From Sedimentisphaerales bacterium (lineage in GTDB: Bacteria > Planctomycetota > Phycisphaerae > Sedimentisphaerales > Anaerohalosphaeraceae), in NCBI GenBank assembly GCA_028282905.1, contig JANQGW010000112.1, forward strand, positions 189-64,188: a DNA stretch of 64,000 bases, in the 5' to 3' direction. The notes under the pieces were generated by a model, which was not told where the DNA came from, made no database searches, and saw only the letters and a program-made list of their open reading frames with translations. Shown here in pieces: positions 9,352 through 57,442 of the stretch (positions within the stretch are counted from its first letter, which is position 1; every line of letters starts with the position of its first letter). The position numbers were made by a program, and so were the translations under genes.

Positions 9352-9383
9352 TGGACGATAAGTTCCACAAACAGTGGTACACA

Positions 9384-15044: not shown

Positions 15045-15069
15045 ACAGAGAGAAAGATTGGATGAGATA

Positions 15070-15753: not shown

Positions 15754-16124
15754 AAAAGACACTTATTTCCATAACACTTGTTACAGTTCTAATGGCATTG
15801 ATCTTGGCCGGCTGTGGTAAAAAAACCGGCGAAGTGTATGGTGAGCCGATTGGAAACCGACAAACCACCCACTTAAAAGAAGTGCTGACCGAGCCGGACA
15901 GCTTTAAGGACAAGACGTTAACCGTTGAAGGCAAGATCGTGCGTCAATGCCCAACGGGCTGCTGGTTTGACATTCAAAGCGATACGGCGGTCATGCATGT
16001 AGATATTAACCCTTCCGGCTTTGCCCTGCCGCAAAAGCCGGGTAAAACGGTTCTGGTGGAAGGAAAGGTCAGCGTTGAAGGCGACCAGGTCGAAATCATC
16101 GGAACAGGAGTGGAAGTCAAATGA
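15750..16124 (+). CDS. DUF4920-like lipoprotein
   Basis: Lipobox LILAGC. The CPTGCW motif and overall size match my recollection of DUF4920. It is translationally coupled on both sides (ATGA overlaps). Confidence 0.55.
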   Translation: MKKTLISITLVTVLMALILAGCGKKTGEVYGEPIGNRQTTHLKEVLTEPDSFKDKTLTVEGKIVRQCPTGCWFDIQSDTAVMHVDINPSGFALPQKPGKTVLVEGKVSVEGDQVEIIGTGVEVK

Positions 16125-17305: not shown

Positions 17306-17307
17306 CA

Positions 17308-23041: not shown

Positions 23042-23097
23042 AGAAAATGCCGGCTGTCAAGTATACTTCTTCTATTCCTGACAGCCGGCAAAAACAT

Positions 23098-25863
23098 TTA
23101 TCGTCGAGCTTTATAGTCCTGCCAGAGGTCGAAAATGACTTTCGGGTCGCTCAGCCCCATACCTTCCAGATCCGGGGCGGTCAGTTTGAAATTGCCGTTA
23201 CCCGGCTCGACAAATTCCGGTTCGACAATCACCGCGTCGGGGCTGTCACAGTTTTCCAGATCGGCTTGATTTTTCCAAAAGACGTTTTTACCAAATTTCG
23301 ATCGGATAGGGTCGGACTTGCCTTCTTCCTGATGGATGATAATGCCGCGAGGATTGGAACTGATGACATTATTACTTACGGCCAGCATCGAATACGGTCG
23401 GGCGGCAATGGCCGCGTAGGTCGATTTCAGAATCACATTGTTTTCGACTTTAAACTTACAGGCCGATATGCCGTCGATCCCGCTGGCGTTGCCAATCAAC
23501 AGATTGTTAGTAATCGTGCCGGAACCGGATTTGTTGCCCAGATAGACACCGCGATTGCGATTGTTGATAATCAGATTATCTTTCATCGTCAGCTTCCCGC
23601 CGGTGGTACGAACGGCATGATATTTTGAGCCGGTTATCACGTTTCGCTCAACGGTGGCCTCGGCGCCGTTGTAAAGAATCACACCCTGATGGCCGCAGTC
23701 ACGGATGAAACAATCGAACATTCGCCCCTGAGTGCCCTCACCATAGCAAACGACATAATCAAAGCCGGTGAAATCACAGTCAATCACATCCATTTTGGAA
23801 AAACCCATGGAGCGGATCGCGACCGGGCTGCGCTGCGGATTGCCAAGCGGACGAAACTTACAATCGGTAATAGTTGCTTCAGTATCCTTGACCGCAACCG
23901 CAAAAGGCATTTCATGCCGGTCGCTGGTCGCAAGCTGCCAGTTGATGTAAAGTCCGGAAACTATCACCTTGCCTTTACCGGCAGTGTCAATCATAATCGC
24001 CGGCTCATTAGCGGTGATATTAAAGATAACATCGCCGTGATCCATACAAACCAAATTCATGGGCTTGGTGATCTTTATCGGCTTATCATATGTCCCGGCC
24101 GGCACCGTCAACGTCTTGCCCGGCTTGGTCGCATTGATCATCGCCTGCAAATCGGAGCTGTCCGCCGATGCTGCCATCATGCCCGGTGCCCCTGCCCCCG
24201 GTGCTTCCATTCCCGGCATCATTCCATCCGGGGCACCCGTATCGCTGGACGGACGAATGACCGGACGAATCATCCAGTCGCCGGTATCAAATTCCTCAAA
24301 TCCCTGTCCCGGCAGGCCGGTGTAGGAATTGCCGGAAGCTTCGGCGTCATAATGCACATACACACCCTTTCTCTGCTCAGCGTTAAAACCAAAGCACAGG
24401 TAAAACTGGTCGGGAAGCTGCGTGGTTTTGACACGCATTTTAACCCACTTGGGATTACCGCGTTTGAATGTCCCGTACGGCAATTCAAAGTCCGCAATCA
24501 CTTCCTGGTTGACGTCACACAGCCAGACATGAAATTTTTCTTTTGGCGGCTGGGGATATCCGTAACGTGAGCCGTACAGCATCACCGCCACTATCTCGGA
24601 TTTTTGCTCCGGCTCAAAATAGACCGCGTGCCCGCTGCCGGCAATGCTCTTTTTACCCGCTGACTTACCGTCATCATGGCCAATCGGCGCGGGTCTGGCA
24701 GCCGCCGTTAAAGTCGTTTCCACAATCGGCTCAACGACTTTTTCCACACTTGGTCTGGCGACTGACCTTGCGGACGTAAACGTCGTTGCCGCCAAAATCG
24801 CAATCACAACGAGGATCGGAATGGTCGAGGCCTTCTGGTTTTTGAATTTTGCGATCATGCTCATTCTCCTTTTCAATAGTGATTGATTTTCTGCGATTCC
24901 CGCCATTGCAGGGACGGTTCGCTGCCCAGCAAACCGCTGCAAAAATGCCAGGATCGTCGCTCCATACGCTTTAGGTTCATGCTCTTTTAACGTTGAAAGT
25001 GCCAGTTCGTCGCAGGCCAACTCGCGGTCTGCGTTGATGCGGCTCATCGCGAACCAGACCGCGGGATTGAACCAGTGCAATACCTGCACGACCGCCATCA
25101 GCCAGCCAATCAGGATGTCATGACGTTTGAGATGGGCCAGTTCGTGCAGAAAAACATAGCGAAGCTGATCCGGGGTCATCTCGTTCAGAATGCCGGTCGG
25201 CAGCAGTAAACGCGGCCGCAGGTAGCCGAACAGACACGGTGTTTTGACTTCGTCAGTTTCCACCACACCAACAACCGTTTGCAGGTCCAACTGGCCCTTA
25301 CAGTCCTCCAGCAATTCCAGAATATCCTGTCGCGTCACCAGACGTCGACGCTTGATAATTCGCCACAACCGAAAGTTATTAGCTAATACCCACACGCTCA
25401 GCAGGCCCGCCCCGCCAAGCCACAGGCCGCTAAGCAGCTTTGGCCAGTCCATTGTCGCCACAGCCGGTGATGCCAATTCGACTGAATCAACCGCCGCCGT
25501 AGTGGTTTCCGGCCCGGTTGTTTCAGCCGATGCTGCCGGAGGAAGTGCATCTGTCGTATCAGTAGATGCGGCGACATTAGCATTGGCATTATGCTCCTCT
25601 GCCGTCTGCGGCGATGATAAATACTGTTCCGGCGTGACCTGCCGCGGAATCAGGTTAAAAACACTGAAAGCCGTCTGCACATTCAGCGGCCAGATTAGTC
25701 GTACCAGCAGCACCAGCCACAGCCAATACACCATCCGGCAGCGTAATTTCCCTTTGACCACTATCCGCACCAGCAGAATCATCGCCAACAAAATTGTCCC
25801 GTAAAATGAACTTCGGGCAAGCCATAAAAAGACTTCCTGAAGTGATTGCGGTATCGAAAACAT
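23098..25863 (-). CDS. BlaR1/MecR1-type M56 peptidase sensor fused to a large extracytoplasmic right-handed beta-helix domain
   Basis: N-terminal polytopic M56 domain with the zinc motif HELAHLKRHD. After a further TM there is a roughly 550-aa ectodomain with a Met/Pro/Gly linker and repeated beta-helix-type units (NNVITGS, NNLIINN, NNLLIGN, NNVILKS, NNVISSN). Confidence 0.85.
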   Translation of the reverse strand: MFSIPQSLQEVFLWLARSSFYGTILLAMILLVRIVVKGKLRCRMVYWLWLVLLVRLIWPLNVQTAFSVFNLIPRQVTPEQYLSSPQTAEEHNANANVAASTDTTDALPPAASAETTGPETTTAAVDSVELASPAVATMDWPKLLSGLWLGGAGLLSVWVLANNFRLWRIIKRRRLVTRQDILELLEDCKGQLDLQTVVGVVETDEVKTPCLFGYLRPRLLLPTGILNEMTPDQLRYVFLHELAHLKRHDILIGWLMAVVQVLHWFNPAVWFAMSRINADRELACDELALSTLKEHEPKAYGATILAFLQRFAGQRTVPAMAGIAENQSLLKRRMSMIAKFKNQKASTIPILVVIAILAATTFTSARSVARPSVEKVVEPIVETTLTAAARPAPIGHDDGKSAGKKSIAGSGHAVYFEPEQKSEIVAVMLYGSRYGYPQPPKEKFHVWLCDVNQEVIADFELPYGTFKRGNPKWVKMRVKTTQLPDQFYLCFGFNAEQRKGVYVHYDAEASGNSYTGLPGQGFEEFDTGDWMIRPVIRPSSDTGAPDGMMPGMEAPGAGAPGMMAASADSSDLQAMINATKPGKTLTVPAGTYDKPIKITKPMNLVCMDHGDVIFNITANEPAIMIDTAGKGKVIVSGLYINWQLATSDRHEMPFAVAVKDTEATITDCKFRPLGNPQRSPVAIRSMGFSKMDVIDCDFTGFDYVVCYGEGTQGRMFDCFIRDCGHQGVILYNGAEATVERNVITGSKYHAVRTTGGKLTMKDNLIINNRNRGVYLGNKSGSGTITNNLLIGNASGIDGISACKFKVENNVILKSTYAAIAARPYSMLAVSNNVISSNPRGIIIHQEEGKSDPIRSKFGKNVFWKNQADLENCDSPDAVIVEPEFVEPGNGNFKLTAPDLEGMGLSDPKVIFDLWQDYKARR

Positions 25864-25883: not shown

Positions 25884-26258
25884 CTATGAGCCTTCCTTTT
25901 GATTGAGAATGTCCTTGAGTTCTTCGATCTCTTTTTCTGAAAGCTTTTGGTCCTGCAGAAAAGCCGCCAACATGGGCTTAAGCGCCGCCGCTCCGGCACG
26001 CTCCAACAGCGACTGCGTTTCCTGCCGGACGCACTCATGCTCAGCCACCAGGGGGAAATAGCGATGCTGCCTGCCATCTTTTTCAAAATCGAGCGCGCCC
26101 TTTTTGTGCAGGCGTCCAATCAGCGTGCGAATGGTCTTGGGATTCCAGCCGGAATCGTCCAGCACCTCAACTACTTCATTGGCGGTCCGCGGCGACTTAT
26201 GCCAGAAAACCTTCATGACAGCCCACTCAGCTTCCGTAATGTTCGGCATGGTACTCAT
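25884..26258 (-). CDS. BlaI/MecI/CopY-family transcriptional repressor
   Basis: MSTMPNITEAEWAVMKVFW...TIRTLIGRLHKKGAL is the winged-helix penicillinase-repressor pattern. The ATG at 26258 has GAGGAG upstream, so the track's N-terminal extension to 26336 is rejected. Confidence 0.9.
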   Translation of the reverse strand: MSTMPNITEAEWAVMKVFWHKSPRTANEVVEVLDDSGWNPKTIRTLIGRLHKKGALDFEKDGRQHRYFPLVAEHECVRQETQSLLERAGAAALKPMLAAFLQDQKLSEKEIEELKDILNQKEGS

Positions 26259-26274
26259 AATGACTCCTCTTAAT

Positions 26275-26312
26275 ATTACATCTGTAATATTTCTAATTAT
26301 TACAGCTGTAAT
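26275..26312. promoter_or_regulatory. Twin BlaI-type operator dyads upstream of the blaI-blaR1 operon
   Basis: ATTACATCTGTAAT (26275-26288) and ATTACAGCTGTAAT (26299-26312), each a perfect TACA-N2-TGTA palindrome, lie 17-54 nt upstream of the blaI start. TACA/TGTA dyads are the established BlaI/MecI recognition motif. Confidence 0.7.
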
Positions 26313-26594
26313 CCATAAGTCAACAAGAAAATCCAAACAAAACTTAAATACGCATATCTCATTTCAAATAAAAGACTTAACAACACATTAATTTTAATTT
26401 AAGAATTATTTCGTCTTAAAAAAGCATTTTAATCCATTTGCAACTGCTTTAAACTCAATCAACCATTCAATGGATGACTACAAAATGCAACCACATTTAT
26501 CACAGTGAAATATCCATTTTACAATCAGTAACACTTCGGCTACAATTAGCACAAATTACTTAGATAAAAGTGTTTTGCTTAAGGAGATTTCTTA

Positions 26595-27893
26595 GTGGAG
26601 CGTTCAATGTTAATAGCCAAGCCAGTTATATTATTCCTTTTGTCATGCCTTGTTTTGGTAATTGGATGCAATAACGACGATGGCAATGAAATTTACTATT
26701 CAGTTATCATCGAAAATGAAACAGAGTCTGTCTTGCATGAACTCACCTTGCATGATTGGCCGGGAGTTTCAGGAACGTTTGGCAGAAACAGTGGAATTAC
26801 AAATCCTGTTCCAGACATAATAAGGATTACTTGGAAATCAGCAATTCAGGGTAAAGAAACAGAAGCCGAGGAGTACTTAAAAAAAATTACGCAAGATTTC
26901 AACAAACCTCTAAACAGGACATCAGATAATAGTAGAGGATTCTTAGCATTTGATGAAAGAGAAATATTCCCCACTGATCTATTTAAAACCCACGAGGCAA
27001 CTCTAGTTCTAAAGGATAAAATTCCTCAAAAACCATGTGGTGACATCACAATCTCGTATATTGGTAACGAAGATTTTGAATTAGAATTTCAAAAAGATAA
27101 TCGCGGTGCTACAAACTCTGACATGAAAGATGGAAATGTCACCATTAAAGACGGCATATTAGATCTAAGTTTCTCAAAGATTACTGACAAAGGATTGGAT
27201 AGCTTTAAAAACACTGAACAAGTTAAGATATTAAATCTTACAGGAACTACTATTTCTGACCCAGGGCTTAAACACCTTTCTTCATATCCAAATCTTAAAG
27301 CAGCAGACTTAAAATATTTGCAGATATCAGGAAAAGGATTTGAAAATTTCAAGTCAGATAAGTTAGAATACTTGAACTTAGAGCAAAGCACCATAGAAAA
27401 TCAATACTTGGATAATTTATCAAATTATAGAAACCTTGAAATCCTAATATTGATCAGAACAGACATCTCTGATATTTCAGGAATCTCAAATCTCAAATCA
27501 CTTCAGATTCTGAATTTGGCTGCGTGCCCAATCTCTGATGATGGCTTAAAAAATATAGGACAGTTGAAAAACTTAGAACAACTTACACTTGTTCAAAACA
27601 ATATTTCTGATAGCGGAATAAAGTACTTAACAGAACTTGAAAATTTAAAATCACTCCGTTTGGGAGCAAATAATATTACAGACTCTGCTGTACAAAAACT
27701 CTCAATAATGCCAAGTTTGCTTTACCTTGAACTGTCCGGTACAAACATTACTGACAAAGCCGTAGAATATCTCTTAAAATTTCCAAAATTAGAATCGGTC
27801 AATTTACGTTCAACAACATTGTCTGTTGAAAGCCTGAAGAAATTAAAGCAGCAACGCCCCAATTTGAAAATACTTTCATGGGAGGAAATTTAA
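26595..27893 (+). CDS. Leucine-rich-repeat (LRR) lipoprotein
   Basis: Lipobox LVIGC. The C-terminal half holds about 10 tandem 24-aa LRR units (LxxLxLxxTxISDxGLKxLxx). A GTG start at 26595 sits 8 nt after AAGGAG. The gene is markedly AT-rich compared with its neighbours. Confidence 0.85.
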   Translation: MERSMLIAKPVILFLLSCLVLVIGCNNDDGNEIYYSVIIENETESVLHELTLHDWPGVSGTFGRNSGITNPVPDIIRITWKSAIQGKETEAEEYLKKITQDFNKPLNRTSDNSRGFLAFDEREIFPTDLFKTHEATLVLKDKIPQKPCGDITISYIGNEDFELEFQKDNRGATNSDMKDGNVTIKDGILDLSFSKITDKGLDSFKNTEQVKILNLTGTTISDPGLKHLSSYPNLKAADLKYLQISGKGFENFKSDKLEYLNLEQSTIENQYLDNLSNYRNLEILILIRTDISDISGISNLKSLQILNLAACPISDDGLKNIGQLKNLEQLTLVQNNISDSGIKYLTELENLKSLRLGANNITDSAVQKLSIMPSLLYLELSGTNITDKAVEYLLKFPKLESVNLRSTTLSVESLKKLKQQRPNLKILSWEEI

Positions 27894-28349
27894 TTACTCG
27901 GCCAGAACAGCCCAGTCGAGGGTTTCGGCGTTGGAATTTGAGATACCGGTCAGGACGTGTTTGACCTGTCCGAACGTGACGGCTTTATCGCATCGCAGGC
28001 GGACGGTTTTATCCGTTGCGCCCTCTTTTCCCAGTGATTCGTCAATCGCCGCGGTCATCAGACGGGCAAGATCATCACCGGTGACATTGCCCAGCGGCTC
28101 ACTGCCGACGGCATAGACGGCACCGCCGTTTTCGGCCATAATCGTGATCGTCAGCGGCTCTTTTTGGTCAACCGGGTCTTTTTGAGCGGATGCAATCTCG
28201 TCGGGTACCTCAACGCGAAACTGCTCGGCGGCGATGAACTGGCAGACCAGCATAAAGAAGATGATCAGCAAAAAGACCACATCAATAATCGGGGTCATGT
28301 CGAATGACTCGGCCTCAAACGAACGCTTTTTGTTCCAAAAACCAAGCAT
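27894..28349 (-). CDS. exbD: ExbD/TolR-family biopolymer transport protein
   Basis: The N-terminal FDMTPIIDVVFLLIIFFML anchor containing the conserved Asp, and 151 aa in length. It starts 3 nt after the exbB stop. Confidence 0.9.
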   Translation of the reverse strand: MLGFWNKKRSFEAESFDMTPIIDVVFLLIIFFMLVCQFIAAEQFRVEVPDEIASAQKDPVDQKEPLTITIMAENGGAVYAVGSEPLGNVTGDDLARLMTAAIDESLGKEGATDKTVRLRCDKAVTFGQVKHVLTGISNSNAETLDWAVLAE

Positions 28350-34273: not shown

Positions 34274-36706
<2,433 letters not shown>

Positions 36707-36815
36707 TTATCACGGCCCTATCCTATCGATTGTGTGGAAAAAGTCAATGAAAATACAAGGGGTTGACCGCCTCGTTCCTGCGCTAAACTGAGTATTGGCT
36801 TATAATCGCGCATAC

Positions 36816-36847
36816 AAAAAGAGCCTGCAAATCCCCGCAAGCTCTTT
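36816..36847 (-). terminator. Rho-independent terminator after the TolC-family gene
   Basis: The minus strand reads AGAGCTTGC-GGGGATTT-GCAGGCTCT followed by TTTTT, about 20 nt after the stop at 36866. Confidence 0.65.
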
Positions 36848-36865
36848 ATTATTAGCGACTTATAT

Positions 36866-38497
36866 TTATTCGGCGACCGTCAAAACCGGCTTTTCCCACA
36901 TGCCGTCCGGGCGAATCTTCATTGAGCCGGTATCACGGTAGAATTCCAGGCTGGCCAGCACGTAATCGATCAGGGCACGGTTCGAGGCATTCTGGGCATC
37001 CAGCAAATCCTCTCGAGCATCCAGCACATCGCGAGTGTTGGCACGGTCATACCGCAATAACAGCAGTGTATTATCCGTTCGCTCGCTGGCCAGTTCACGG
37101 CTGGTCTGTTCAACCCGCCAGCGCCGGTAGGCCTCCTGCATCTGACGATAGGCACGCCGGACCTCCAGCGTCACCATTTCGGTCAATTCCTGATGCGCCC
37201 GCTGCTGCTGCATCAATGTAATCAGCGAACGGCGGTAGGCGTTCTTTTCCGCCAGGCGGTCAATCGGCAAATCCAGTTGAGCACTCAACTGGTAGCGATC
37301 CCGCGTTTCCTGCAGTTGGCCGGGATCGGCTCCAAACACCGTCCGATTCGGTGTTTGAGTTTCGGCAGCCCCAATTAAATTCAGTTCGGCACGAATCGCA
37401 TCCGCGGCCACATCGACCTTTCGCTCGGCGTCAATGACCTGGTCAGCGGCATTGGCTAAATCCAGCCGCTGCGCCAATGCGATTCCAATCGCGTCCTCTT
37501 CGCTCATCGCCATCATTTCCGTCGCGGACCGCTTGAGTGCATCCAGTTCAGCGACATTCAGGCGAACATTGCGACTGACCGAAAACGCCAATTGCATTTT
37601 AAATTCGTCCAGCGCGTTGTTGTAGTCTTTTTTCGCACTGGTATAGTCAGCCAGAGCCTGCAGTCGATCCTGGTTGGCCTGTTCCAGTTCATGCTGGGGT
37701 AAACGGCCGGAAGCAGCGCGTTTTTGCAGCTTCTCATAGATTTTGTAAAGCGAGTAATAATAATCGCGTGCGTTAAGCTGTTCGGTATTGAGCTGCAGCA
37801 GCGTATAATACTCCGTCATGATCGAAGTGACAAAAGTCTTACGGTAGCGATTGAAAGAGCGAATCTGGTAGAGCGTATTGCGTTCAGCCTGTGTCAGATT
37901 TTCCAGCGCCACTTTCCGGCCGGCACCCCGCAGCAGCGGCTGGGTAATTACGGTTGATGCCACAGTCGAAAAACCACTTCGGAAGTCACCTGAAATAATA
38001 TCAACCCAGCCAAGGCTGAGATTACCGCTGATATGAGCACCAGTTGCCAGCAACTGTTCAAACCCCACGTTGCCAAACGCTCCGGCCGCTTTGTTACCGT
38101 CATCTTTTCGGAAACCACCATCGCCGCCCATGAACGGCATCGGCTCATAGAGGTGCCGAACATCGGTATAATCCAGAGCGGTTAAATACAGGGTTTCTTT
38201 TTCAGTATGATATTGGCGATTATGACGTGTCGCAATAGCAACGGCTGCCGGCAGCGTCAATACATCGCTTTTGGACAGGGTCGGCTCATCGGCAACAATG
38301 GTCTTGGCATCGGTCGCGGCATCGGCAATACGATAGTTCGCGCGTTCAGCCGTCAGTTCATCGTCCCACTGCGAATCGATCACTTCATAAACCGACGCAT
38401 CGGTTTCGGCGACGGTTTTCGGAAGATCCAACTGACAACCGGCTGACAGACAACACAGCAACCCGACCAGCAAAATCAAAAACAATTTTTGGTACAT
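36866..38497 (-). CDS. TolC-family outer-membrane efflux/secretion channel
   Basis: 543 aa with a lipoprotein-like signal (LLCCLSAGC) and two tandem repeats of the long coiled-coil/beta-barrel OEP pattern. ATG with GGGGA 7 nt upstream, 14 nt after the HlyD-family stop. Confidence 0.88.
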   Translation of the reverse strand: MYQKLFLILLVGLLCCLSAGCQLDLPKTVAETDASVYEVIDSQWDDELTAERANYRIADAATDAKTIVADEPTLSKSDVLTLPAAVAIATRHNRQYHTEKETLYLTALDYTDVRHLYEPMPFMGGDGGFRKDDGNKAAGAFGNVGFEQLLATGAHISGNLSLGWVDIISGDFRSGFSTVASTVITQPLLRGAGRKVALENLTQAERNTLYQIRSFNRYRKTFVTSIMTEYYTLLQLNTEQLNARDYYYSLYKIYEKLQKRAASGRLPQHELEQANQDRLQALADYTSAKKDYNNALDEFKMQLAFSVSRNVRLNVAELDALKRSATEMMAMSEEDAIGIALAQRLDLANAADQVIDAERKVDVAADAIRAELNLIGAAETQTPNRTVFGADPGQLQETRDRYQLSAQLDLPIDRLAEKNAYRRSLITLMQQQRAHQELTEMVTLEVRRAYRQMQEAYRRWRVEQTSRELASERTDNTLLLLRYDRANTRDVLDAREDLLDAQNASNRALIDYVLASLEFYRDTGSMKIRPDGMWEKPVLTVAE

Positions 38498-38511
38498 GCG
38501 TATCCCCGGTC

Positions 38512-39669
38512 TTATTGCATGAGCGTTCGAATACCCAGCACTTCATTATGAATACAGGCGAAACCGGGCTGAATTGTAATCTGTACGGAACGTCCCCATT
38601 CCGGACGAGTAGGATCTTGCCAAAGCCGTTCAGGGATCAACTCTATCGACGCGCCAACATCTGATATCTGCGAGGTAAACGTCTCGTACGGAGAGTTCAG
38701 AGAAGCAACCTGCACTTTCGTGTTCACATCAAATTTGTCCATATCTTTCTGGTCAACCCAGGCAGTGATGACGTCCGGGGTCGGTTTGACAATTGTCATA
38801 ATCGGTTCACCGCGTACCACGGTTTGCCCGGGCTTATAGGTCAAGGTGTTGATAATTCCATCAAACGGTGCCGTTAAAACGATGATATCGCTCTGCTCAA
38901 TGAATTCGGCAATGCGTTTTTCCTGTGCCAGAATGGCCTTTTTGATAGGCGCCAATCGCTTATCGGCCAACTGCGGCCGCCGCGGTACTTCCTGCTCGAA
39001 TTCATCTTTTCGGAGCATGGCCGCTTCATAATCCTGTTGAGCCTGGGCCAGCAGAGCCTGCGATGCATCAATCTTTTTCTCCAAAATTGCGTACTGGGCC
39101 TCTGCCTTCTGCAGTTCGTATGCTTCGGCTGCATTTTCTTTTAAGAGATTTTTGACAATCTCAATTTCCACCTCAAGATCCTTGAGGGCAAGACGATCCG
39201 GTTCCAGCGTGGCATTGACCTCTAATACCGCCAGACGCGTCCGTTCAATATCCACTGCCAGCCGACGTTCCATCGTGACAACGTCGTTGGCGTATTCCTG
39301 CTCTTCCCGAATCAACTGGTCCTCAACCGCTTCGAGTTCGGCCTTCAACTGCTCCAGTTCAACCTCGGCCGTTGCCTTTTGGGCCTTCAGCAACGCATCC
39401 TCATATACCTGCCGGGCCAGTGTGTTTTCCTTGATAACGGCCAGCGTATCACCTTTTTTGACTTCCTGATAGAGCCGGACCTCAATCGATCGGATGTAGC
39501 CGGTTTCCACACTGTTAATCGACTGTTCCTCACTGAACGCAATGCCTTTCAGCTCCACTCGCATTGACTGAAACTGAAACAGTACCACAACAGCACCCAA
39601 CGCCATCACCCAGACCAGCGTCGGCAGCATTCGAGCGATTAACTTTCCCTGTTTTAATTTAAATCTCAT
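38512..39669 (-). CDS. HlyD-family periplasmic adaptor (membrane fusion protein)
   Basis: N-terminal TM, a lipoyl-like half (GYIRSIEVRLYQEVKKGDTLAVI ... LTAPFDGIINTLTYKPGQTVVRGEPIMTIV), and a coiled-coil hairpin of about 200 aa between the halves. Confidence 0.88.
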   Translation of the reverse strand: MRFKLKQGKLIARMLPTLVWVMALGAVVVLFQFQSMRVELKGIAFSEEQSINSVETGYIRSIEVRLYQEVKKGDTLAVIKENTLARQVYEDALLKAQKATAEVELEQLKAELEAVEDQLIREEQEYANDVVTMERRLAVDIERTRLAVLEVNATLEPDRLALKDLEVEIEIVKNLLKENAAEAYELQKAEAQYAILEKKIDASQALLAQAQQDYEAAMLRKDEFEQEVPRRPQLADKRLAPIKKAILAQEKRIAEFIEQSDIIVLTAPFDGIINTLTYKPGQTVVRGEPIMTIVKPTPDVITAWVDQKDMDKFDVNTKVQVASLNSPYETFTSQISDVGASIELIPERLWQDPTRPEWGRSVQITIQPGFACIHNEVLGIRTLMQ

Positions 39670-39687
39670 CGATGTTCATCCTTATCA

Positions 39688-40386
39688 TCATATCTGGAGC
39701 AGTTGTTCCTGAACCGTCAGGCTGACATTTTTCACACCTTCGGCCTTCTGCAATTCATCCATCATTATTTCATTTTTCGCGGCGTTTTTCAGCATCACCT
39801 GGTATGCATACTCCACGGTCCGCTCGCCAAAATCCCCGCCGTCCGAAGAAATCATTGTGTGAGCACGGCAGAACTTCTTCAAAGTTACCATCACCGGATG
39901 GTCGGGGCTGAGGTGGCCGTCTAAGGTAAACCGCAGGAAAGCGTTATGCGGCCGGTGCGTCCCGAAATCGGACAGGTAAAGATACAGAATAATCATACTC
40001 AGCGCCAGCGTGCCGACAATTGCGATGACATACCGCTGTGAGCCAGCGGCCATGCCGATGACCAACGCACAAAAAATAAACGCGATATCACGCGTATCTT
40101 TAATAATATTGCGGAAGCGAATAATCGATAGCGCTCCCATCAGACCAACCGCCACGACAAAACTGCCCGCGATGGTGGACATCACCATCGAGACGATGAC
40201 GGTAATCAAAATTAATGCCTGCACAAATGATCGCGAATACGACAGTCCGTTGTGCGTAAAGTAGTACAGCCACGCCAGAAGCTGGCCCAGTACAAACGCC
40301 AACAGCAGTGACAACAACAGTGCCTGGACGGAAAATTCCGGTCCAATGGCCGAGGCGTTTTCAATCGATCGCCAGATTGCTTGCAT
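39688..40386 (-). CDS. DUF4956-family integral membrane protein
   Basis: GALSIIRFRNIIKDTRDIAFIFCALVIGMAAGSQRY is the family signature (ALSIVRFRT..KD.rD..F). The ATG at 40386 lies 2 nt after the VTC-gene stop (TAA TT ATG), so the track's longer start at 40434 is rejected. Confidence 0.78.
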   Translation of the reverse strand: MQAIWRSIENASAIGPEFSVQALLLSLLLAFVLGQLLAWLYYFTHNGLSYSRSFVQALILITVIVSMVMSTIAGSFVVAVGLMGALSIIRFRNIIKDTRDIAFIFCALVIGMAAGSQRYVIAIVGTLALSMIILYLYLSDFGTHRPHNAFLRFTLDGHLSPDHPVMVTLKKFCRAHTMISSDGGDFGERTVEYAYQVMLKNAAKNEIMMDELQKAEGVKNVSLTVQEQLLQI

Positions 40387-40388
40387 AA

Positions 40389-41393
40389 TTACATTCCTAC
40401 CGAATACAATGGGGCACAGTAGCCCAGGGAACAAGATTGTTTAACGGTTGACACATATTTCGACATCGCTGTCTGCTTGAGGTCAAACACTTTTGCCATA
40501 TCACTAAGCCACAGCGGGTATCGATTCGTAAATTTGATTTCCAGCACAACAAAATCCATCGGCACTTCGTGCCAGTCGGGGCCGTCAACTTCCAGTATCG
40601 GGCGATCCGGCGTCTTGTAGCTTAGCCGTCGGTCAAAGGTGACGCGAACGCGGTTTCGGGAGTCGCCCTCAAAAGCCTGCCGCTTGTACTTAACCAGCAC
40701 CACCGGCCGGGCGCACAACGTCCGCAGATAAAACTGGAACTGACGCAGTGTTTTCTGGTCTTTCTTATACAGTGAAGGAGGAACATACATCTCCTGAACG
40801 ACCCGACCCATCACATCTTTACTCAACCGGGCACGGTCCTTCATAATTACGCTGTTGAGACGACGCTTGATCTCGACGAAACACGGGGTATCCGGGTTAT
40901 CATCATAGCAGCGAATGCGCAGTTTAAAGCGATTTGTTTTCTTGTTGATCGTCTCTTTGCATAAATGCAGGTGACTGGAGTCAAAGTACAAGCTGGAAAT
41001 CGGGTACTCCAGGTTGGGTGACTTCAGGGAATAACGGTCCACGGGAATATAAGAGCGGACATATTCAGCAATCGCACGGGCCTTGCTTTCCCGGATGCGG
41101 TATTTTAACTCGTAGCGAACATTGAGCGTGGTATCTTTCTTGGGGGATTTCGGCTTACTCCGAACCGTGTCGATTTTCAACGACGATGATGGCTTTGGAG
41201 ACTTTGAAGACGCCGGGCGTGAAGGAAGAAGCGGCACCACAGACGGTGTTTCCCGCTGAACCTTTTTTTCTGCTTTGCTGTTGTTATCCTGCTTTGACTG
41301 AGAACTCACGATTGTAATCCCCACGCACATTGCAAAACCCGTTACTCCTCGCAACAGCCAACCCCCGGCTGTCCGAAGATACTTGTTCTGCAT
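40389..41393 (-). CDS. VTC-domain (polyphosphate polymerase / triphosphate-tunnel) protein with an N-terminal TM anchor and Ser/Pro/Lys linker
   Basis: YELKYRI, SSLYFDS, FKLRIRCY, FVEIKRR, VRVTFDRRL, VVLEIKF and MSKY occur in the order typical of bacterial VTC-domain proteins. The N-terminus GWLLRGVTGFAMCVGITIV is hydrophobic. Confidence 0.78.
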   Translation of the reverse strand: MQNKYLRTAGGWLLRGVTGFAMCVGITIVSSQSKQDNNSKAEKKVQRETPSVVPLLPSRPASSKSPKPSSSLKIDTVRSKPKSPKKDTTLNVRYELKYRIRESKARAIAEYVRSYIPVDRYSLKSPNLEYPISSLYFDSSHLHLCKETINKKTNRFKLRIRCYDDNPDTPCFVEIKRRLNSVIMKDRARLSKDVMGRVVQEMYVPPSLYKKDQKTLRQFQFYLRTLCARPVVLVKYKRQAFEGDSRNRVRVTFDRRLSYKTPDRPILEVDGPDWHEVPMDFVVLEIKFTNRYPLWLSDMAKVFDLKQTAMSKYVSTVKQSCSLGYCAPLYSVGM

Positions 41394-41593
41394 TCCCCAT
41401 ATATGACTCGTAAGACAGTGTTTTCAGCTATTATTATACAACAGGCGATATAAACTGTCAACGAATTATTTAACTAATCAAATGAAAATATATTTATAGA
41501 CCTAAAAACACAACATTTAAGCAAAAAAACCTACAGACAACCCTGTTTTCACTGCTATTATCGGCCTTTTTGAAACCAAAAAGCAATGTATAT

Positions 41594-41637
41594 AAAAAAA
41601 GCCGTTTTGAGGAGGGCATTGCCTTCCCCAAAACAGC
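41594..41637 (-). terminator. Strong rho-independent terminator isolating the VTC operon from the upstream gene
   Basis: The minus strand shows a 17-bp imperfect stem GCTGTTTTGGGGAAGGC/GCCCTCCTCAAAACGGC followed by T7. Confidence 0.8.
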
Positions 41638-41714
41638 CTTGTTAAAACATTTTTCTGTTTATCGTATCGGCAGCAATCTGAAAACGGATTTACCGCCGCT
41701 AAAACGACCTGATG

Positions 41715-44171
41715 CTATTTGGTCACCGCTACAGCATCCAGATTGGGGCCGTTACCAATGCTCATGACCTTGACGAAGTTGCCGCCCTTCTTAAACGTCA
41801 CCTTTGCCTGAACCGTTTTCCAGTTGGTCCATTGTCCGGTGCTCTTAAAGGCAATCTTGCCGGCCTTTTTGCCGTTGATAAACAATTCACACGGCCGGTT
41901 ATCAGACGACGCATAACGGAATGTCAGGGTATATTGGCCTTGCTTGTCGGCCAGCACGTTATCCCATTCAACATAGCTTCCGGCACCGCCGAAATCAGTA
42001 AACCCGGTGCCTTGGTAGCCTTTCTGGTTGGTGGCCTTTTTACAGCCGACCATCTTGGCGTCTTCTGCTTCATAGGCATCACCTTTGAGCTTGGAAGCCA
42101 CTGCCGCGGCGGCGGCCTTTTCACGATGCGGATAACACACATCACCGCCGGCGCCCAAATCCTTAATGCGAAGGTTGCGGAACTGGTAAACCAGTCCTTT
42201 TTCGCCGTGATGCTGGATACCGATGTGGCCTTGCAGATCCATCTCATCCCGGATATCCGTCGTAACGACGCCGTTCACCGAAATCTTGATATGGGAACCG
42301 ATACACTCAATGCGGTACTTGTTCCACTGGCCCTGCTTGTAGCATTCGCCGGCCCGGGCACGGAAATCAGCAATCGATTTTTCCTTTTCCTGGGCATTGG
42401 CTGCCTTGTCACGGTTGGGCGAGATAAACCAGGTTCGACGGCCTTCATCATAAAGCCCTCCGGACCACTTACGGTCAGAAGGATCGACTTCTGCCTGATA
42501 GCCCCATGCTCTGTTTTTCTGCTTTTGGCAGCGGAACAGGAAGCCGGAATTGCCTTTGCCAACCGGCATCTTGATTTCGCCTTCGAAAATGAAGTTGGCA
42601 TACTGCTTTTTGGTCAGCAGGAACCACTTACTCTTTTCGGTCGTCAGTTCGACAACGCCGTCTTTTAACTCGGCCTTGCCCCAGTCGTAAGGATTTTCCC
42701 ATTGACTGAACGAGGCGTCTGTGACCAATTCTTCCCACTTGGTTTGCTTGGCTGTTTTAATCAATGACACCTTGGATGGAGCGGGCTTCATCTTATCGTA
42801 TGCGTCCCAGTGCTCGCGAACCTCGGGGCCTTTCAGCATCGCATTCGCTTCCGGATGGTTGGTAATCTTCATCGCCTTGGCGTCATATTTGAGCGTACCG
42901 CCGAACTTTTGACCGACGCAGCCCAGACACAGCATTTCCGAAAGCGGTGCCCCGACTTCAAACGGCGAGTTGGCCGGTTCGATGCCCTGGCAGGCATTCA
43001 GAAAGTTCTTGTAGTGGTTATAGTTCTCACGATTCGGGTCAGGCAGGCCGCCTTCCTTTTCCAGCTTTTCGAGCTTAGGATTTAAGGCAAAGTGGTATTT
43101 GGCACCATGACTCTTACCGCTTAAGACACCCTTGTCGAGATAAAGCAGCGAGCCGGGAGCATCCATCTTCGCTTTGTAACCGTCAGGCCGCGGGGCAGAA
43201 TTGCCCTGTCCGTCGTACCAGTTCAATTCCAGCGGCGGCATATCGCCGCGTGCTTTAAACTTAAAGGTAATTACAGAGCCTTGAGGATAATAATGTTCGC
43301 TTGGCCCCATTACTTTTGTGGTAATTTCATAAGGCTGTCCGAGCTTGAGGTAACGGTGATAGGCATCAAGAATATGAGCACCCCAGTCACCCATGCAGCC
43401 GCAGCCAAACTCATACCAGCAGCGCCAGTTACCACCGACCATCTTGTCACTGTACGGACGGAACTGACGTCGGCCCAGCCACTGGTCCCAATCATAACCA
43501 ACCGGCGGAATCGCCTGCGGATAATCTTCATAGGTCCAGCCATGCCACCGGCGGCTCTTGTTCATCCAGGCATCAATGCGCTTGACGTTTTTAATAATAC
43601 CCTCATCAACCATTTGACCAAACTGAATCGTTCCGAACCCTGAATGGCCCTGGTTGCCCAATTGCGTCACAACACCGCACTTGCGGACTGTCTTTTCGAC
43701 CAGACGGCATTCATAGACATTTTGCGCCAGCGGCTTTTCAACGTAAACGTGCTTGCCCATCAGCATCGAATGCATGACCATCGGGAAATGTGAGTGGTCC
43801 GGCGTCGAAACAATTACCGCGTCGAACTTGTCGTGCATTTCCTCGAACATCTGGCGATAATCCCGATAGCACGGCACGCCGGGGAAACCCTTCATCTGAT
43901 AATTGTGTGAGGTGAACAGCACGTCCGCAAACGCTACAAAATCAACCTGATCCGAAAAACCCGCAAAGGTTTTCAGAACACTTGCGCCTCGGTTGAATAC
44001 ACCAATCTGAACGGCACGAATTTTCTGTCCCTTCGGGACAATCCGCGACGGCATCAGCGGCTTAACGTCGCCATTGGCAAACGCACCACAGCCGGAAAAC
44101 ATCAGCACCGGCGGCGTGTAAAGCATCGTCTTCAGCACCGCGCGACGTGATACATCCATCTTCTTATCCAT
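41715..44171 (-). CDS. TAT-exported fusion: Gfo/Idh/MocA oxidoreductase + DUF1080 (3-keto-disaccharide hydrolase-like) + CBM6/35-like carbohydrate-binding module
   Basis: Twin-arginine signal MDKKMDVSRRAVLK. Rossmann/EKP motif (GKHVYVEKPLA). DUF1080 pattern (GNSGFLFRCQ..GYQAEVDPSDRKWSGGLYDE..WNKYRIECIGSHIKISVNG..IGIQHHG). C-terminal YEAEDAKMVG..GYQGTGFTDFGGAGSYVEWDNV. I prefer the ATG at 44171 (AAGGAA upstream), because the track start at 44234 lies inside a hairpin. Confidence 0.8.
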   Translation of the reverse strand: MDKKMDVSRRAVLKTMLYTPPVLMFSGCGAFANGDVKPLMPSRIVPKGQKIRAVQIGVFNRGASVLKTFAGFSDQVDFVAFADVLFTSHNYQMKGFPGVPCYRDYRQMFEEMHDKFDAVIVSTPDHSHFPMVMHSMLMGKHVYVEKPLAQNVYECRLVEKTVRKCGVVTQLGNQGHSGFGTIQFGQMVDEGIIKNVKRIDAWMNKSRRWHGWTYEDYPQAIPPVGYDWDQWLGRRQFRPYSDKMVGGNWRCWYEFGCGCMGDWGAHILDAYHRYLKLGQPYEITTKVMGPSEHYYPQGSVITFKFKARGDMPPLELNWYDGQGNSAPRPDGYKAKMDAPGSLLYLDKGVLSGKSHGAKYHFALNPKLEKLEKEGGLPDPNRENYNHYKNFLNACQGIEPANSPFEVGAPLSEMLCLGCVGQKFGGTLKYDAKAMKITNHPEANAMLKGPEVREHWDAYDKMKPAPSKVSLIKTAKQTKWEELVTDASFSQWENPYDWGKAELKDGVVELTTEKSKWFLLTKKQYANFIFEGEIKMPVGKGNSGFLFRCQKQKNRAWGYQAEVDPSDRKWSGGLYDEGRRTWFISPNRDKAANAQEKEKSIADFRARAGECYKQGQWNKYRIECIGSHIKISVNGVVTTDIRDEMDLQGHIGIQHHGEKGLVYQFRNLRIKDLGAGGDVCYPHREKAAAAAVASKLKGDAYEAEDAKMVGCKKATNQKGYQGTGFTDFGGAGSYVEWDNVLADKQGQYTLTFRYASSDNRPCELFINGKKAGKIAFKSTGQWTNWKTVQAKVTFKKGGNFVKVMSIGNGPNLDAVAVTK

Positions 44172-57091: not shown

Positions 57092-57442
57092 GACTGTCTC
57101 CTGTGGATACAAAGATAGAATCGTCATTATGACAGATTTCCCTGAAAAATCAAATACCAAAACCCGTGATTTGCCTTTTAAACAGGGTTTTTCAGGCTAT
57201 TTACAGAACGCCTTGCCCTTGTGCTTTATTGCGATAATCAACAACAAGAACTATAGAAAGGCGATTTTTTTTGACTTGTTTTTACATATCCAAGCGGTTT
57301 CCTGTTGCACTGAAATCCCAAAAACTCTATCCTGAGTTGCTCTGAAAGAACGCAAATAAGACTTCTATTTCACAAAATCCACCGTTGTCGCAAAAAGTCT
57401 CGCGATGGCCGCGGTTGAGTAATATTGACAAGGGACATTATT

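Follow-up and report, generated by a model that had tools for sequence, protein, structure and literature searches.

Apart from VTC polymerases, the enzymes of the triphosphate-tunnel type act as hydrolases or cyclases. To our knowledge, polyphosphate synthesis has been demonstrated for no bacterial VTC-domain protein. A three-gene unit, CotH-VTC-DUF4956, has been published from Gram-positive Pel loci (Whitfield et al., bioRxiv 10.1101/768473; PMC12345266). Genetic analysis in S. intermedius ties DUF4956 and CotH to a phenotype that concerns a surface polymer, and the authors of this mBio study on Pel reported the triad at Pel loci only (PMC12345266). Salmonella MgtC, the characterized member of the MgtC family, is a regulator and not a channel, as is well established and discussed in PMC12345266.

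Here, we analyzed a planctomycete cassette in which VTC and DUF4956 genes are followed by genes for a periplasmic adaptor and an outer-membrane channel; no published description of such an arrangement was found in the literature. The original prediction for this DNA had regarded VTC and DUF4956 as a known pair of unknown role, which is correct but incomplete, since the published unit includes CotH. Judged from its sequence, the cassette is a strong candidate for a polymer-making and -exporting machine. We consider the chances about even that it is a dedicated envelope-spanning exporter, in which a VTC synthase docked on DUF4956 would form the inner-membrane engine and polyphosphate would be sent out.

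Organization of the operon

The window, i.e., the whole analyzed stretch of 64,000 nt, derives from a Sedimentisphaerales bacterium (GTDB lineage Bacteria; Planctomycetota; Phycisphaerae; Sedimentisphaerales; Anaerohalosphaeraceae; assembly GCA_028282905.1) and corresponds to positions 189-64,188 of the forward strand of contig JANQGW010000112.1. The genes for the VTC protein, DUF4956, an HlyD/EmrA-type adaptor, and a TolC-family lipoprotein follow one another in this order on the minus strand (36866-41393; Table 1). Examination of the open reading frames agreed with the predicted positions of the four genes and with gaps of 2, 18, and 14 nt between them, and the VTC, DUF4956, HlyD, and TolC-family (OEP) assignments were all upheld by Pfam profiles. 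The sigma-70 promoter was the sole perfect TTGACA-17-TATAAT match in the region 36000-42500. The two terminators proposed to bracket the block both folded well, with dG values of -17.4 kcal/mol (z -4.6) downstream and -27 kcal/mol (z -7.4) upstream, and each was followed by a U-tract. The upstream one ends the preceding GFO/CBM gene and insulates the VTC operon from read-through. The perfect promoter, short gaps, and flanking terminators indicate at the sequence level that the four genes form an operon.

Table 1 Features of the VTC-DUF4956-adaptor-channel locus in the window.
Feature	Coordinates	Strand	Remarks
Upstream intrinsic terminator, GFO/3-keto-disaccharide-hydrolase/CBM gene	41588..41645	-	Hairpin followed by U7
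Sigma-70 promoter of the operon, TTGACA-17 nt-TATAAT	41433..41461	-	12/12 consensus positions
VTC-domain (triphosphate-tunnel, polyphosphate-polymerase-type) protein	40389..41393	-	Pfam VTC; 334 aa from ATG at 41393
Disputed VTC N-terminal extension ("TM anchor")	41310..41393	-	Fails hydropathy; missing in homologues
DUF4956 inner-membrane protein, 232 aa	39688..40386	-	Pfam DUF4956 PF16316
EmrA/HlyD-type periplasmic adaptor (membrane-fusion protein), 385 aa	38512..39669	-	Pfam HlyD_3, HlyD_D23
TolC-family outer-membrane channel lipoprotein, 543 aa	36866..38497	-	Pfam OEP, two repeats
Intrinsic terminator at operon end	36810..36852	-	13-bp core stem, 17 pairs in MFE fold, U-tract

VTC-domain protein

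The VTC protein matched PF09359 over model positions 2-233 of 235 (E = 3.4e-41), and a profile of 30 homologues matched yeast Vtc4 (E = 1e-7). By mapping through the natively numbered chain 8i6v_E, K97, R159, R161, E174, and K176 were found to correspond to K200, R264, R266, E279, and K281 of Vtc4, respectively. All five were invariant in both clades described below and in the Firmicute homologue; the catalytic-type residues are intact. The C-terminal motifs LEIK and SKY, also invariant, are those that we equate with Vtc4 E426 and S457/K458. According to a different explanation, which we regard as unlikely, the cassette is one machine with a cargo other than polyphosphate, be it a protein (for example, a neighbouring CotH/LTD giant), a metal ion, or some small molecule, and VTC-DUF4956 either energizes the export as an NTPase or serves to gate or regulate it. 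Hydrolases do occur among the triphosphate-tunnel enzymes, and the bacterial VTC proteins retain an extra Glu on strand 1 (E95) that Vtc4 lacks; against this stand the Pfam assignment to VTC, not to the CYTH hydrolases, and the invariance of the basic tunnel residues. The VTC enzyme may make polyphosphate.

The Ser/Pro/Lys-rich linker noticed in the original prediction was present here and in the homologues, although its sequence was variable. The N-terminal transmembrane anchor claimed for the same protein was not supported. No window of 19 residues reached a Kyte-Doolittle value of 1.6, an Arg lies inside the supposed segment, residues 1-28 were missing in 29/29 homologues, and the closest relatives carry in-frame stop codons at this position. 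Translation from a GTG at 41309, which lies behind GGGGA-N8, would instead yield 306 aa, in agreement with the homologue lengths. The true start is probably this GTG and the anchor a start-codon artefact; the extension more likely belongs to the 5' UTR than to the coding region. Predictions place the VTC protein in the cytoplasm as a soluble protein whose N-terminal tail is basic and rich in Ser, Pro, and Lys.

DUF4956 protein

DUF4956 matched PF16316 with E = 3.5e-16 and, weakly, the Pfam MgtC family; its match to the NCBIfam MgtC/SapB model (E = 3e-8) was below the family cut-off. Its architecture, approximately five membrane helices and a C-terminal beta-alpha-beta-beta-alpha-beta ACT-like domain, is MgtC/SapB-like. 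Mean column identity among homologues was 65-75%, and the predicted signature ALSIIRFRN..KDTRD was found to be nearly invariant. In a Foldseek search with the AF2 model, which is of moderate confidence (pLDDT 68), matches were obtained to ACT domains only, and the membrane part matched no solved structure, channels included. DUF4956 is unrelated to the eukaryotic VTC channel subunits, with no fold match between them. Leaving aside the anchor helix of the adaptor, no other protein of the cassette is integral to the inner membrane, and DUF4956 may serve as the conduit for the polymer. The tie of the MgtC family to Mg2+ and phosphate homeostasis (PMC12345266) would also suit a machine with another cargo.

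Adaptor and outer-membrane channel

The adaptor was assigned to HlyD_3 (E = 8e-13) and also matched HlyD_D23. It consists of an N-terminal transmembrane helix (residues 8-34), a lipoyl domain, a hairpin with helices of approximately 94 residues, and a beta-barrel, lacks a membrane-proximal domain, and carries the family-specific C-terminal motif P.RLW..P..PEWGR. The best PDB matches of its AF2 model (pLDDT 85) were EmrA (4tko, E = 2e-17), EmrAB-TolC, MacA, and HlyD; the model thus portrays a genuine tripartite-pump adaptor. The TolC-family protein gave two OEP repeats (E = 2.7e-20) and has an LSAGC lipobox with an invariant Cys21. A profile of 20 orthologues matched E. coli TolC over approximately 300 residues (E = 3.8e-8).

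Conservation of the gene order

The same gene order recurred in more than 100 independent loci, which places the VTC-DUF4956-adaptor arrangement far beyond chance, and the linkage persisted from 100% to approximately 20-35% protein identity. Clade 1 was represented by 50 non-redundant Phycisphaerae loci with at least 1.7 kb of DNA after the adaptor. Order and strand were constant among them and the flanks unrelated; the gene after the adaptor was TolC-like in 45, a secretin in four, and neither in one (L031). Practically every related genome showed HlyD and TolC in synteny with the VTC-DUF4956 pair. When 8000 candidates were scored with the adaptor, 150 homologues passed the cut-off of E = 1e-3, and members of the adaptor family of the window were found only beside DUF4956. 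The most distant homologues on long contigs (35-38% identity) all lay in VTC-DUF4956-adaptor-OEP cassettes. Within this search, the adaptor family was exclusively associated with the cassette.

The secretins occupied the TolC site together with a co-diverged adaptor. Locus L004 shares a downstream SHC flank (65% identity) with L020 and L022, and their VTC and DUF4956 proteins are 67-72% and 83-85% identical, respectively; between L004 and the other two, adaptor identity falls to 38-39% and TolC gives way to a secretin. A 2-residue insertion and a divergent hairpin tip were seen in the four secretin-linked adaptors only. The adaptor was exchanged along with the channel, which implies functional adaptor-channel contact. 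As the channels that secretins form are ordinarily for proteins or pili, these four loci also speak for a cargo other than polyphosphate.

In a second clade, in which DUF4956 is 33% and the adaptor approximately 20% identical to those of the window, VTC-DUF4956-HlyD was kept in all of the approximately 44 metagenomic loci with enough DNA, amid varying flanks. No linked outer-membrane gene was detected in these loci, which means that export could end in the periplasm. We consider it quite unlikely that polyphosphate is periplasmic only (serving for storage, buffering, or metal chelation) or cytoplasmic, with the adaptor as a scaffold or retention tube and TolC or secretin as a lineage-specific add-on. 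VTC-DUF4956-adaptor is indeed the deepest conserved unit, L031 lacks the outer-membrane gene even in clade 1, and the streptococcal literature took polyphosphate as cytoplasmic (bioRxiv 10.1101/2024.04.20.589940). However, an outer-membrane channel gene comes next in 49/50 clade-1 loci, the adaptor was swapped with the channel, and its long hairpin is built like those of TolC-docking adaptors. Moreover, tripartite systems normally allow unlinked outer-membrane partners, as is established for E. coli tolC.

Absence of a conventional pump

As originally predicted, no ABC, MFS, or RND partner was found within approximately 19 kb of the cassette in the window. No conserved adjacent pump emerged from the precomputed Pfam lists of eight loci, nor from scanning every locus for ABC ATPases. 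The window does contain a MacB_PCD/FtsX permease paired with an ABC ATPase, without an adjacent adaptor (16121-17979), and orphan adaptor-OMP pairs are known. Hence one could suppose two independent systems, VTC-DUF4956 for cytoplasmic phosphate/polyphosphate homeostasis and HlyD-TolC for ordinary efflux with a pump elsewhere, such as this one. We judge this highly improbable. The MacB/ABC pair lies 19 kb away on the opposite strand, looks LolCDE-like, and has MacB-like counterparts in no other cassette locus examined; no ABC ATPase is conserved next to the cassette; and the linkage, retained across unrelated flanks down to low identity, includes an adaptor family confined to the side of DUF4956.

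CotH neighbours

Secreted CotH-kinase proteins adjoined the cassette in at least 24 loci, and the CotH partner was often a giant LTD/Laminin_G protein of 1500-2100 aa; an adjacent CotH gene was absent from the window and from many loci. The frequent proximity of such giant surface proteins would fit their being the cargo. The CotH neighbours, however, bear classical Sec signal peptides without T1SS-like features, so they act outside the cytoplasm and would reach the periplasm independently, and complete cassettes occur in many loci without a nearby CotH. In addition, the monoderm Firmicute locus L063 has CotH-VTC-DUF4956 beside Pel genes and neither adaptor nor OMP, i.e., the triad persists where outer-membrane export is unneeded. 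This relative has the triad only, which suggests that the adaptor and channel were added to it in diderms.

Proposed model

In the polyphosphate export model that we prefer, the VTC enzyme on the cytoplasmic face would build a polyphosphate chain from ATP, and the nascent polyanion would thread through a DUF4956 oligomer that is analogous, not homologous, to the eukaryotic VTC channel. The chain would then pass into the tube of the membrane-anchored EmrA-like adaptor and may exit the cell via the TolC-family channel, or the secretin in some relatives. At the surface, the polymer probably works with secreted CotH-kinase-domain proteins. TolC channels are classically cation-selective at their periplasmic entrance, which makes polyanion export through TolC awkward, and secretins usually pass folded proteins. 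The polymerase activity and the conduit role of DUF4956 are inferred, and so are the assembly of the proteins into a complex, the nature and fate of the product, and the functional link to CotH. The computable tests of the original prediction (synteny, adaptor reciprocity, tunnel residues, and pump neighbours) all came out in its favour; as a whole, its observation was partly confirmed and its interpretation partly supported.

Comparison with known systems

The planctomycete cassette shares with the Gram-positive Pel module homologous, adjacent VTC and DUF4956 genes in the same order and a secreted CotH-kinase protein as a frequent neighbour; that module is exactly the gene set of L063. In contrast, the planctomycete cassette has no nearby Pel genes and possesses the extra adaptor and channel, and its CotH protein is often of the giant LTD/Laminin_G kind or, as in the window, unlinked. 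Members of the MgtC/SapB/YhiD family resemble DUF4956 in combining an N-terminal helical membrane domain with a C-terminal ACT-like domain; DUF4956 gives weak sequence matches to this family, and its homologues are annotated as YhiD by JGI, but the scores fall under the family cut-offs. MgtC regulates F-ATPase and PhoR, is not known as a conduit, and, unlike DUF4956, is not known to be genetically linked to VTC or adaptors.

The eukaryotic VTC complex (Vtc4 and the Vtc1/2/3 channel) has the same PF09359 domain with the K200/R264/R266/K281 residues, and likewise couples a soluble synthase domain to a small multi-helix membrane protein, here genetically. It joins synthesis to nascent-chain translocation, and we propose the same logic for the cassette. 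The VTC protein of the cassette, however, lacks an SPX domain and is unfused to a membrane domain, its partner is DUF4956 (MgtC-like helices and ACT) instead of the DUF202-type three-helix Vtc1 fold, the cassette further encodes an adaptor and an outer-membrane channel, and the target would be the diderm periplasm or exterior instead of the vacuole lumen.

The cassette resembles EmrAB-TolC, MacAB-TolC, and HlyBD-TolC in its EmrA/HlyD adaptor architecture (with EmrA as the best structural match), its TolC-family outer-membrane protein, and its gene arrangement. It differs in having VTC and DUF4956 in place of an ABC, MFS, or RND transporter, in a presumed cargo made in situ rather than captured, and in the secretin that replaces TolC in some relatives; we know of no adaptor-secretin pairing in classical tripartite systems. 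Finally, synthase-dependent secretion of alginate (Alg8/Alg44/AlgK/AlgE), cellulose, PNAG, and Pel follows the same concept of polymerase, periplasmic scaffold, and outer-membrane pore, and Alg44 has an adaptor-like (MFP-like) periplasmic domain. Compared with these systems, the polymer of the cassette would be inorganic, its synthase is a tunnel metalloenzyme instead of a glycosyltransferase, and its exit would be TolC or a secretin instead of a TPR-porin pair.

A self-contained operon in the window

The cassette consists of four tightly packed minus-strand ORFs, encoding a VTC-domain enzyme, a DUF4956 membrane protein, a HlyD/EmrA-type adaptor and a TolC-family outer-membrane protein (OMP). 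Their coordinates, and the intergenic gaps of 2, 18 and 14 nt, were exactly those of the original prediction. The terminator proposed after the OMP gene was recovered as a strong hairpin with a U-tract (-17.4 kcal/mol, z -4.6), and the one proposed upstream of the operon as a hairpin with a U-tract after the upstream gene (-27 kcal/mol, z -7.4). A sigma-70 promoter (TTGACA-17-TATAAT) matched the consensus at 12 of 12 positions and was the sole perfect match in the region. The flanking genes were unrelated housekeeping and sugar genes, assigned by Pfam to a monomeric isocitrate dehydrogenase and a GFO/3-keto-disaccharide-hydrolase/CBM protein. From the gaps, the promoter, the folded hairpins and the unrelated flanks, we therefore concluded that the block is a self-contained operon, as had been suggested. 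An Rfam scan of the operon and its leader gave no credible RNA element, and PADLOC models gave no anti-phage defence match to the four proteins.

Elsewhere in the window, whose overall G+C is about 0.51, the value dropped sharply to 0.37 where a leucine-rich-repeat protein is encoded; this ORF was possibly acquired horizontally. A second dip reached 0.42. A 1120-aa fusion of NIR_SIR nitrite/sulfite-reductase, pyridine-nucleotide-disulfide oxidoreductase and several 4Fe-4S domains was also encoded.

Coordinates of the cassette and of features in the window and in related loci from the genome and metagenome scans (L numbers)
Feature	Locus	Position	Strand	Remarks
VTC enzyme	window	41393-40389	-	
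DUF4956 protein	window	40386-39688	-	
Adaptor	window	39669-38512	-	HlyD/EmrA-type
OMP	window	38497-36866	-	TolC family
Sigma-70 promoter	window	41461-41433		
MacB_PCD/FtsX permease, then ABC ATPase	window	16121-17979	+	
Two ORFs upstream of that pair	window	13963-14973; 15040-15753		no Pfam match
Two large adjacent genes	window	20705-25863	-	M56 peptidase fusion; Laminin_G_3 protein
G+C dip	window	26001-28000		
Leucine-rich-repeat ORF	window	26595-27893	+	
Second G+C dip	window	8001-10000		
NIR_SIR fusion	window	57425-60787	+	
Secretin replacing TolC-family gene	L020	2743-4653	+	STN + Secretin_N + Secretin
Secretin replacing TolC-family gene	L022	3182-4843	+	STN + Secretin_N + Secretin
Secretin replacing TolC-family gene	L033	7409-9538	+	STN + Secretin_N + Secretin
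Secretin replacing TolC-family gene	L034	13325-15169	+	STN + Secretin_N + Secretin
VTC-DUF4956-HlyD unit (examples from L067-L146)	L074	5025-7653		variable flanks
VTC-DUF4956-HlyD unit	L081	5305-8017		variable flanks
VTC-DUF4956-HlyD unit	L102	4322-6952		variable flanks
CLC-type channel	L102	6995-8812	-	
CLC-type channel	L118	9293-11116	-	
CLC-type channel	L119	4659-6521	-	
CLC-type channel	L136	4222-6084	-	
Phage-type genes	L001	106-306		
Phage-type genes	L002	6144-7349	-	
Phage-type genes	L003	1-136		
Phage-type genes	L003	5880-7271	-	
Split VTC gene	L058	9938-10853		two overlapping ORFs
Split OMP gene	L049	12705-14358		two overlapping ORFs

The VTC enzyme retains tunnel residues of Vtc4

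Profile searches supported the VTC assignment (Pfam PF09359, E = 3.4e-41, 141.8 bits against a cut-off of 23) over nearly the full length of the model (positions 2-233 of 235), and a profile from 30 VTC homologues matched Vtc4 structures at E = 1e-7. When the enzyme was mapped to Vtc4 through the natively numbered chain 8i6v_E, the catalytic tunnel residues were found to be present: K97, R159, R161 and K176 correspond to K200, R264, R266 and K281 of Vtc4, and E174 aligns with E279. These four basic residues were invariant in the 30 homologues, in a second clade of distant metagenomic loci and in a Firmicute. E174, R93, E95, Y136, D138, R178, R238, R250, D254, E285, K287, K312 and Y313 were likewise identical in every lineage examined, the Firmicute included. 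The LEIK motif holds E285/K287 and the SKY motif S311/K312; by motif only, because the pairwise VTC-Vtc4 alignment ends earlier, these would be equivalent to Vtc4 E426 and S457/K458. No bacterial VTC-domain member with characterised activity was found in the literature searched.

The N-terminal TM anchor attributed to this enzyme did not hold up. The segment lies below the standard hydropathy threshold, has an Arg inside and is not a family feature: it was missing from 29 of 29 homologues, and in-frame stops interrupt the matching upstream DNA of the four closest relatives examined. The closest relatives start with MAKTV.., MASKKQ.. or MSIKQQ.., and translation from a GTG at 41309, with GGGGA 8 nt before it, would yield 306 aa, a length usual among homologues. 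Given the hydropathy, the homologues and the stops, the enzyme is most likely a soluble, cytoplasmic protein whose basic tail is rich in Ser/Pro/Lys, a location that suits an ATP-using enzyme.

DUF4956 weakly resembles the MgtC/SapB family

The DUF4956 assignment was likewise borne out (Pfam E = 3.5e-16). The family has more than 2000 homologues. The protein is highly conserved, with a mean column identity of 65-75%, and R90, R92, K96 and R99 are invariant. The mechanical ORF (39688-40434, minus strand) runs on upstream to a TTG at 40434, where it shares 46 nt with the VTC gene; the ATG at 40386 is the likely start, because the homologues all begin at that position. The protein matched Pfam MgtC weakly (19.1 bits against a cut-off of 31.4) and NCBIfam PRK09977 over residues 59-223 (33.5 bits against a cut-off of 214), and some homologues carry a precomputed PF02308 match. 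Structure models were built from alignments of database homologues, which are less diverse than the locus-derived set. The AF2 model, of moderate confidence (pLDDT 68), has five membrane helices followed by a beta-alpha-beta-beta-alpha-beta domain. In a Foldseek search against the PDB the only matches were ACT domains, and these were weak; the membrane part had no fold match and no VTC-channel match. The nearest relatives of DUF4956 are regulators, not channels.

No conventional pump is encoded beside the adaptor and OMP

The adaptor matched Pfam HlyD_3 and HlyD_D23, and the OMP matched OEP/TolC in two repeats (E = 2.7e-20); NCBIfam agreed with both assignments. In a confident AF2 model (pLDDT 85), the adaptor has a TM helix, a lipoyl domain, a beta-barrel and a hairpin whose helices span about 94 residues; it lacks a membrane-proximal domain. 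W20 and L30 of the TM helix are invariant. The structures that the adaptor matched best were EmrA (E = 2e-17), EmrAB-TolC, MacA and HlyD. The lipobox cysteine of the OMP is invariant. A single-sequence PDB search with the OMP found no match, and a profile of 20 sequences was needed to reach E. coli TolC (E = 3.8e-8).

No ABC, MFS or RND gene was found inside the operon or in the roughly 19 kb around it, nor was such a pump found beside the cassette in the 8 loci with precomputed Pfam lists, and ABC ATPases are not conserved neighbours across about 60 loci. A pump encoded away from the cassette could conceivably be the adaptor's partner.

The window does encode a MacB_PCD/FtsX permease and, directly behind it, an ABC ATPase; no adaptor gene adjoins them. 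We rejected this pair as the missing pump: it lies 19 kb off on the opposite strand, and none of the other loci has it near the cassette. The pair probably belongs to a LolCDE-like or MacB-like system.

The four genes stay together in Phycisphaerae

The key test put forward with the original prediction was synteny of the HlyD/TolC genes with VTC/DUF4956, and this was kept across related loci. VTC homologues of 52-64% identity in four genomes were all accompanied by DUF4956, a ~385-aa adaptor and a ~548-aa OMP, with entirely different flanks. A pattern scan in which each species was represented by a single genome gave 58 loci, almost all of them from Phycisphaerae (Sedimentisphaerales, Anaerohalosphaeraceae), with some labelled Pirellulales, one Akkermansia and one Firmicute; their genes were called with HMMs built from the cassette proteins. 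VTC, DUF4956 and adaptor occurred in this order in every planctomycete locus with enough DNA, with estimated median gaps of 6 nt (VTC-DUF4956) and 16 nt (DUF4956-adaptor). Among 50 non-redundant loci with at least 1.7 kb beyond the adaptor, the next gene was TolC-like in 45, a secretin in 4 and neither in 1. The reciprocal test also passed: 150 database proteins among 8000 candidates scored matched the adaptor at E <= 1e-3, and the most distant adaptor homologues on long contigs (35-38% identity) again lay in VTC-DUF4956-adaptor-OEP cassettes. The four proteins very probably form a single functional unit. That two unrelated systems lie side by side in the cassette, a reading compatible with a remote pump, is highly improbable beside an order kept within such different flanks.

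In three complete or near-complete Sedimentisphaerales genomes (L001-L003), the cassette and the gene for a giant CotH-kinase-domain (CotH) protein are directly preceded by a phage-type integrase or by phage genes (AlpA/HTH_17, Phage_tail_T), which hints that this block adjoins or sits within an integrated element or insertion hot spot. The VTC gene of one locus and the OMP gene of another are split, representing either frameshift pseudogenes or MAG assembly errors.

Adaptor and outer-membrane channel exchanged as a pair

In the four secretin loci, secretin domains follow the adaptor with E = 1e-43 to 1e-46. Two of them (L020 and L022) share a downstream flank with the TolC-type locus L004, namely a squalene-hopene cyclase of 65% identity. 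Compared with L004, their VTC and DUF4956 proteins are 67-72% and 83-85% identical, and their adaptors just 38-39%. In the adaptor alignment, a two-residue insertion and a divergent hairpin tip occur only in the four secretin-linked adaptors. Because the adaptor diverged and its hairpin changed, with VTC, DUF4956 and the flank retained, we conclude that adaptor and outer-membrane channel were exchanged as a pair, and that the synthase and membrane protein stayed. Such a paired exchange is expected if the adaptor contacts the outer-membrane pore and the system merely needs some outer-membrane route. We know of no classical system in which a secretin is the partner of an HlyD-family adaptor, and an in-situ exchange of TolC for secretin together with the adaptor is unusual among secretion systems.

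Second-clade loci and a monoderm outgroup

A metagenome scan run with four seed sequences, seeded from the Akkermansia-like DUF4956 (33% identical to that of the window), yielded 80 loci from soil, marine and freshwater. In all of the ~44 loci with room, VTC-DUF4956 was followed by a TM-anchored HlyD-family protein, only ~20% identical to the window adaptor. The gene after the adaptor varies (EF-G, kinases, FIST, GST or a convergent CLC channel), as do the upstream genes, which include PVC hallmark families; some flanks carry PSCyt/DUF1501 genes, typical of PVC bacteria. No linked outer-membrane gene was seen in the loci scanned, so that any outer-membrane partner must be encoded elsewhere. 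In this clade the product may be delivered to the periplasm only. Extended to the cassette as a whole, delivery of polyphosphate (polyP) to the periplasm only is improbable; the TolC-like or secretin gene next to most clade-1 (Phycisphaerae) adaptors stands on the other side.

In several marine loci, a convergent gene for a CLC-type anion channel with CBS domains lies right after the adaptor, which may reflect either a functional connection through the handling of anions or counter-ions, or common descent of closely related loci.

The Firmicute locus (L063) has CotH-VTC-DUF4956 followed by Pel-type genes, with neither adaptor nor OMP. Taken with the second clade, this gene content suggests that diderms added the adaptor, alone or along with a linked pore, to an older core.

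CotH proteins accompany the cassette

A CotH protein is encoded directly upstream or downstream of the cassette in at least 24 clade-1 loci. These proteins are often 1500-2100 aa long, with LTD, Laminin_G_3, Fn3-associated or PA14 domains. T1SS-like export of the CotH giants was rejected as the main reading because all those examined carry Sec signal peptides. Within the 64-kb window, tblastn and HMM searches with giant CotH proteins found no CotH.

The window encodes, in two large adjacent genes, a 921-aa fusion of a BlaR1-type M56 peptidase with NosD/beta-helix repeats and a 778-aa Laminin_G_3 protein. Many CotH giants likewise have Laminin_G_3 at the N-terminus; in the 778-aa protein a CotH domain is absent.

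Pel loci of Gram-positive bacteria have been described as carrying CotH, a "polyphosphate polymerase" and DUF4956 as conserved accessory genes (bioRxiv 10.1101/768473). Mutants of S. intermedius in the DUF4956/MgtC-ACT gene and in the CotH gene showed less Pel and less aggregation, and the authors found the three-gene CotH-VTC-DUF4956 synteny only at Pel loci (PMC12345266). No Pel genes were present in the annotated planctomycete loci.

A model for polymer export

Here, we propose synthase-coupled polyP export as the most economical mechanism for the cassette. The VTC enzyme would polymerise phosphate from ATP at the inner face, the chain would pass the inner membrane through a DUF4956 oligomer, the EmrA-like adaptor would form a periplasmic tube, and the chain would exit by TolC, by a secretin or by a pore encoded elsewhere; the secreted CotH proteins may plausibly use the product. 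We regard this mechanism as evenly balanced between right and wrong, because the kin of DUF4956 are regulators, the entrance of TolC is classically selective for cations and the second clade is perhaps periplasm-only. A different cargo through the same machine we consider unlikely beside the invariant tunnel residues; even then, an adaptor-TolC pair depending on a non-transporter partner would be new. That the cassette is the first dedicated bacterial polyP secretion system, with polyP as phosphoryl or energy donor for secreted CotH kinases in a compartment without ATP, is a decidedly speculative extension.

To our knowledge, no exporter has been defined by which bacteria place polyP outside the cytoplasm. 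A citation in PMC12345266 (its ref. 97) reports polyP on the surface of several bacteria or outside their cells. As a candidate exporter the cassette is concrete, widespread and compact in its genetics, and its four genes make polyP export and the role of CotH-VTC-DUF4956 directly testable. If the model is true, both DUF4956 and the bacterial VTC-domain proteins, two large families, would gain a role, and the repeated association of these two with CotH kinases, in streptococcal Pel loci as in planctomycetes, would be explained.

Comparison with known systems

Literature searches (VTC with HlyD, CotH with polyphosphate polymerase, bacterial VTC domains) found no description of the cassette or of VTC together with HlyD. 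All parts belong to known families, and the combination is new as far as the literature was searched: the dedicated inner-membrane partner of an adaptor and outer-membrane channel would be a polymer synthase with an MgtC-like protein. The cassette is conserved across two deep PVC clades, with TolC and secretin exits interchangeable.

Tripartite efflux and type I secretion systems share the periplasmic adaptor and TolC-family outer-membrane factor with the cassette, but need an ABC, MFS or RND inner-membrane transporter, which it does not encode. If polyP extrusion were shown, the cassette could count as a new class of envelope machine, the fourth tripartite one, with a new kind of inner-membrane engine beside the ABC/MFS/RND trio: VTC polymerisation on an MgtC-like protein would drive the chain through the adaptor and TolC or secretin.

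The cassette would then also be a bacterial counterpart of the eukaryotic VTC synthase-translocase, convergent at the membrane step. Unlike the eukaryotic complex, the window enzyme has no SPX domain, Pfam finding the VTC domain alone, and the cassette has neither a DUF202-type membrane domain nor a Vtc1 partner. DUF4956 is unrelated to the eukaryotic membrane subunits by Pfam (DUF4956 and weak MgtC) and Foldseek (no match); its model, at moderate confidence, has instead the MgtC/SapB layout of a helical membrane domain and a C-terminal ACT-like domain.

The Gram-positive Pel module sits at the pel locus with an adjacent secreted CotH gene, whereas the window cassette lies beside isocitrate dehydrogenase and sugar oxidoreductase genes and lacks the CotH neighbour that its clade-1 relatives often have. 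The adjacency and order of VTC and DUF4956 are the same in the window and in the Firmicute.
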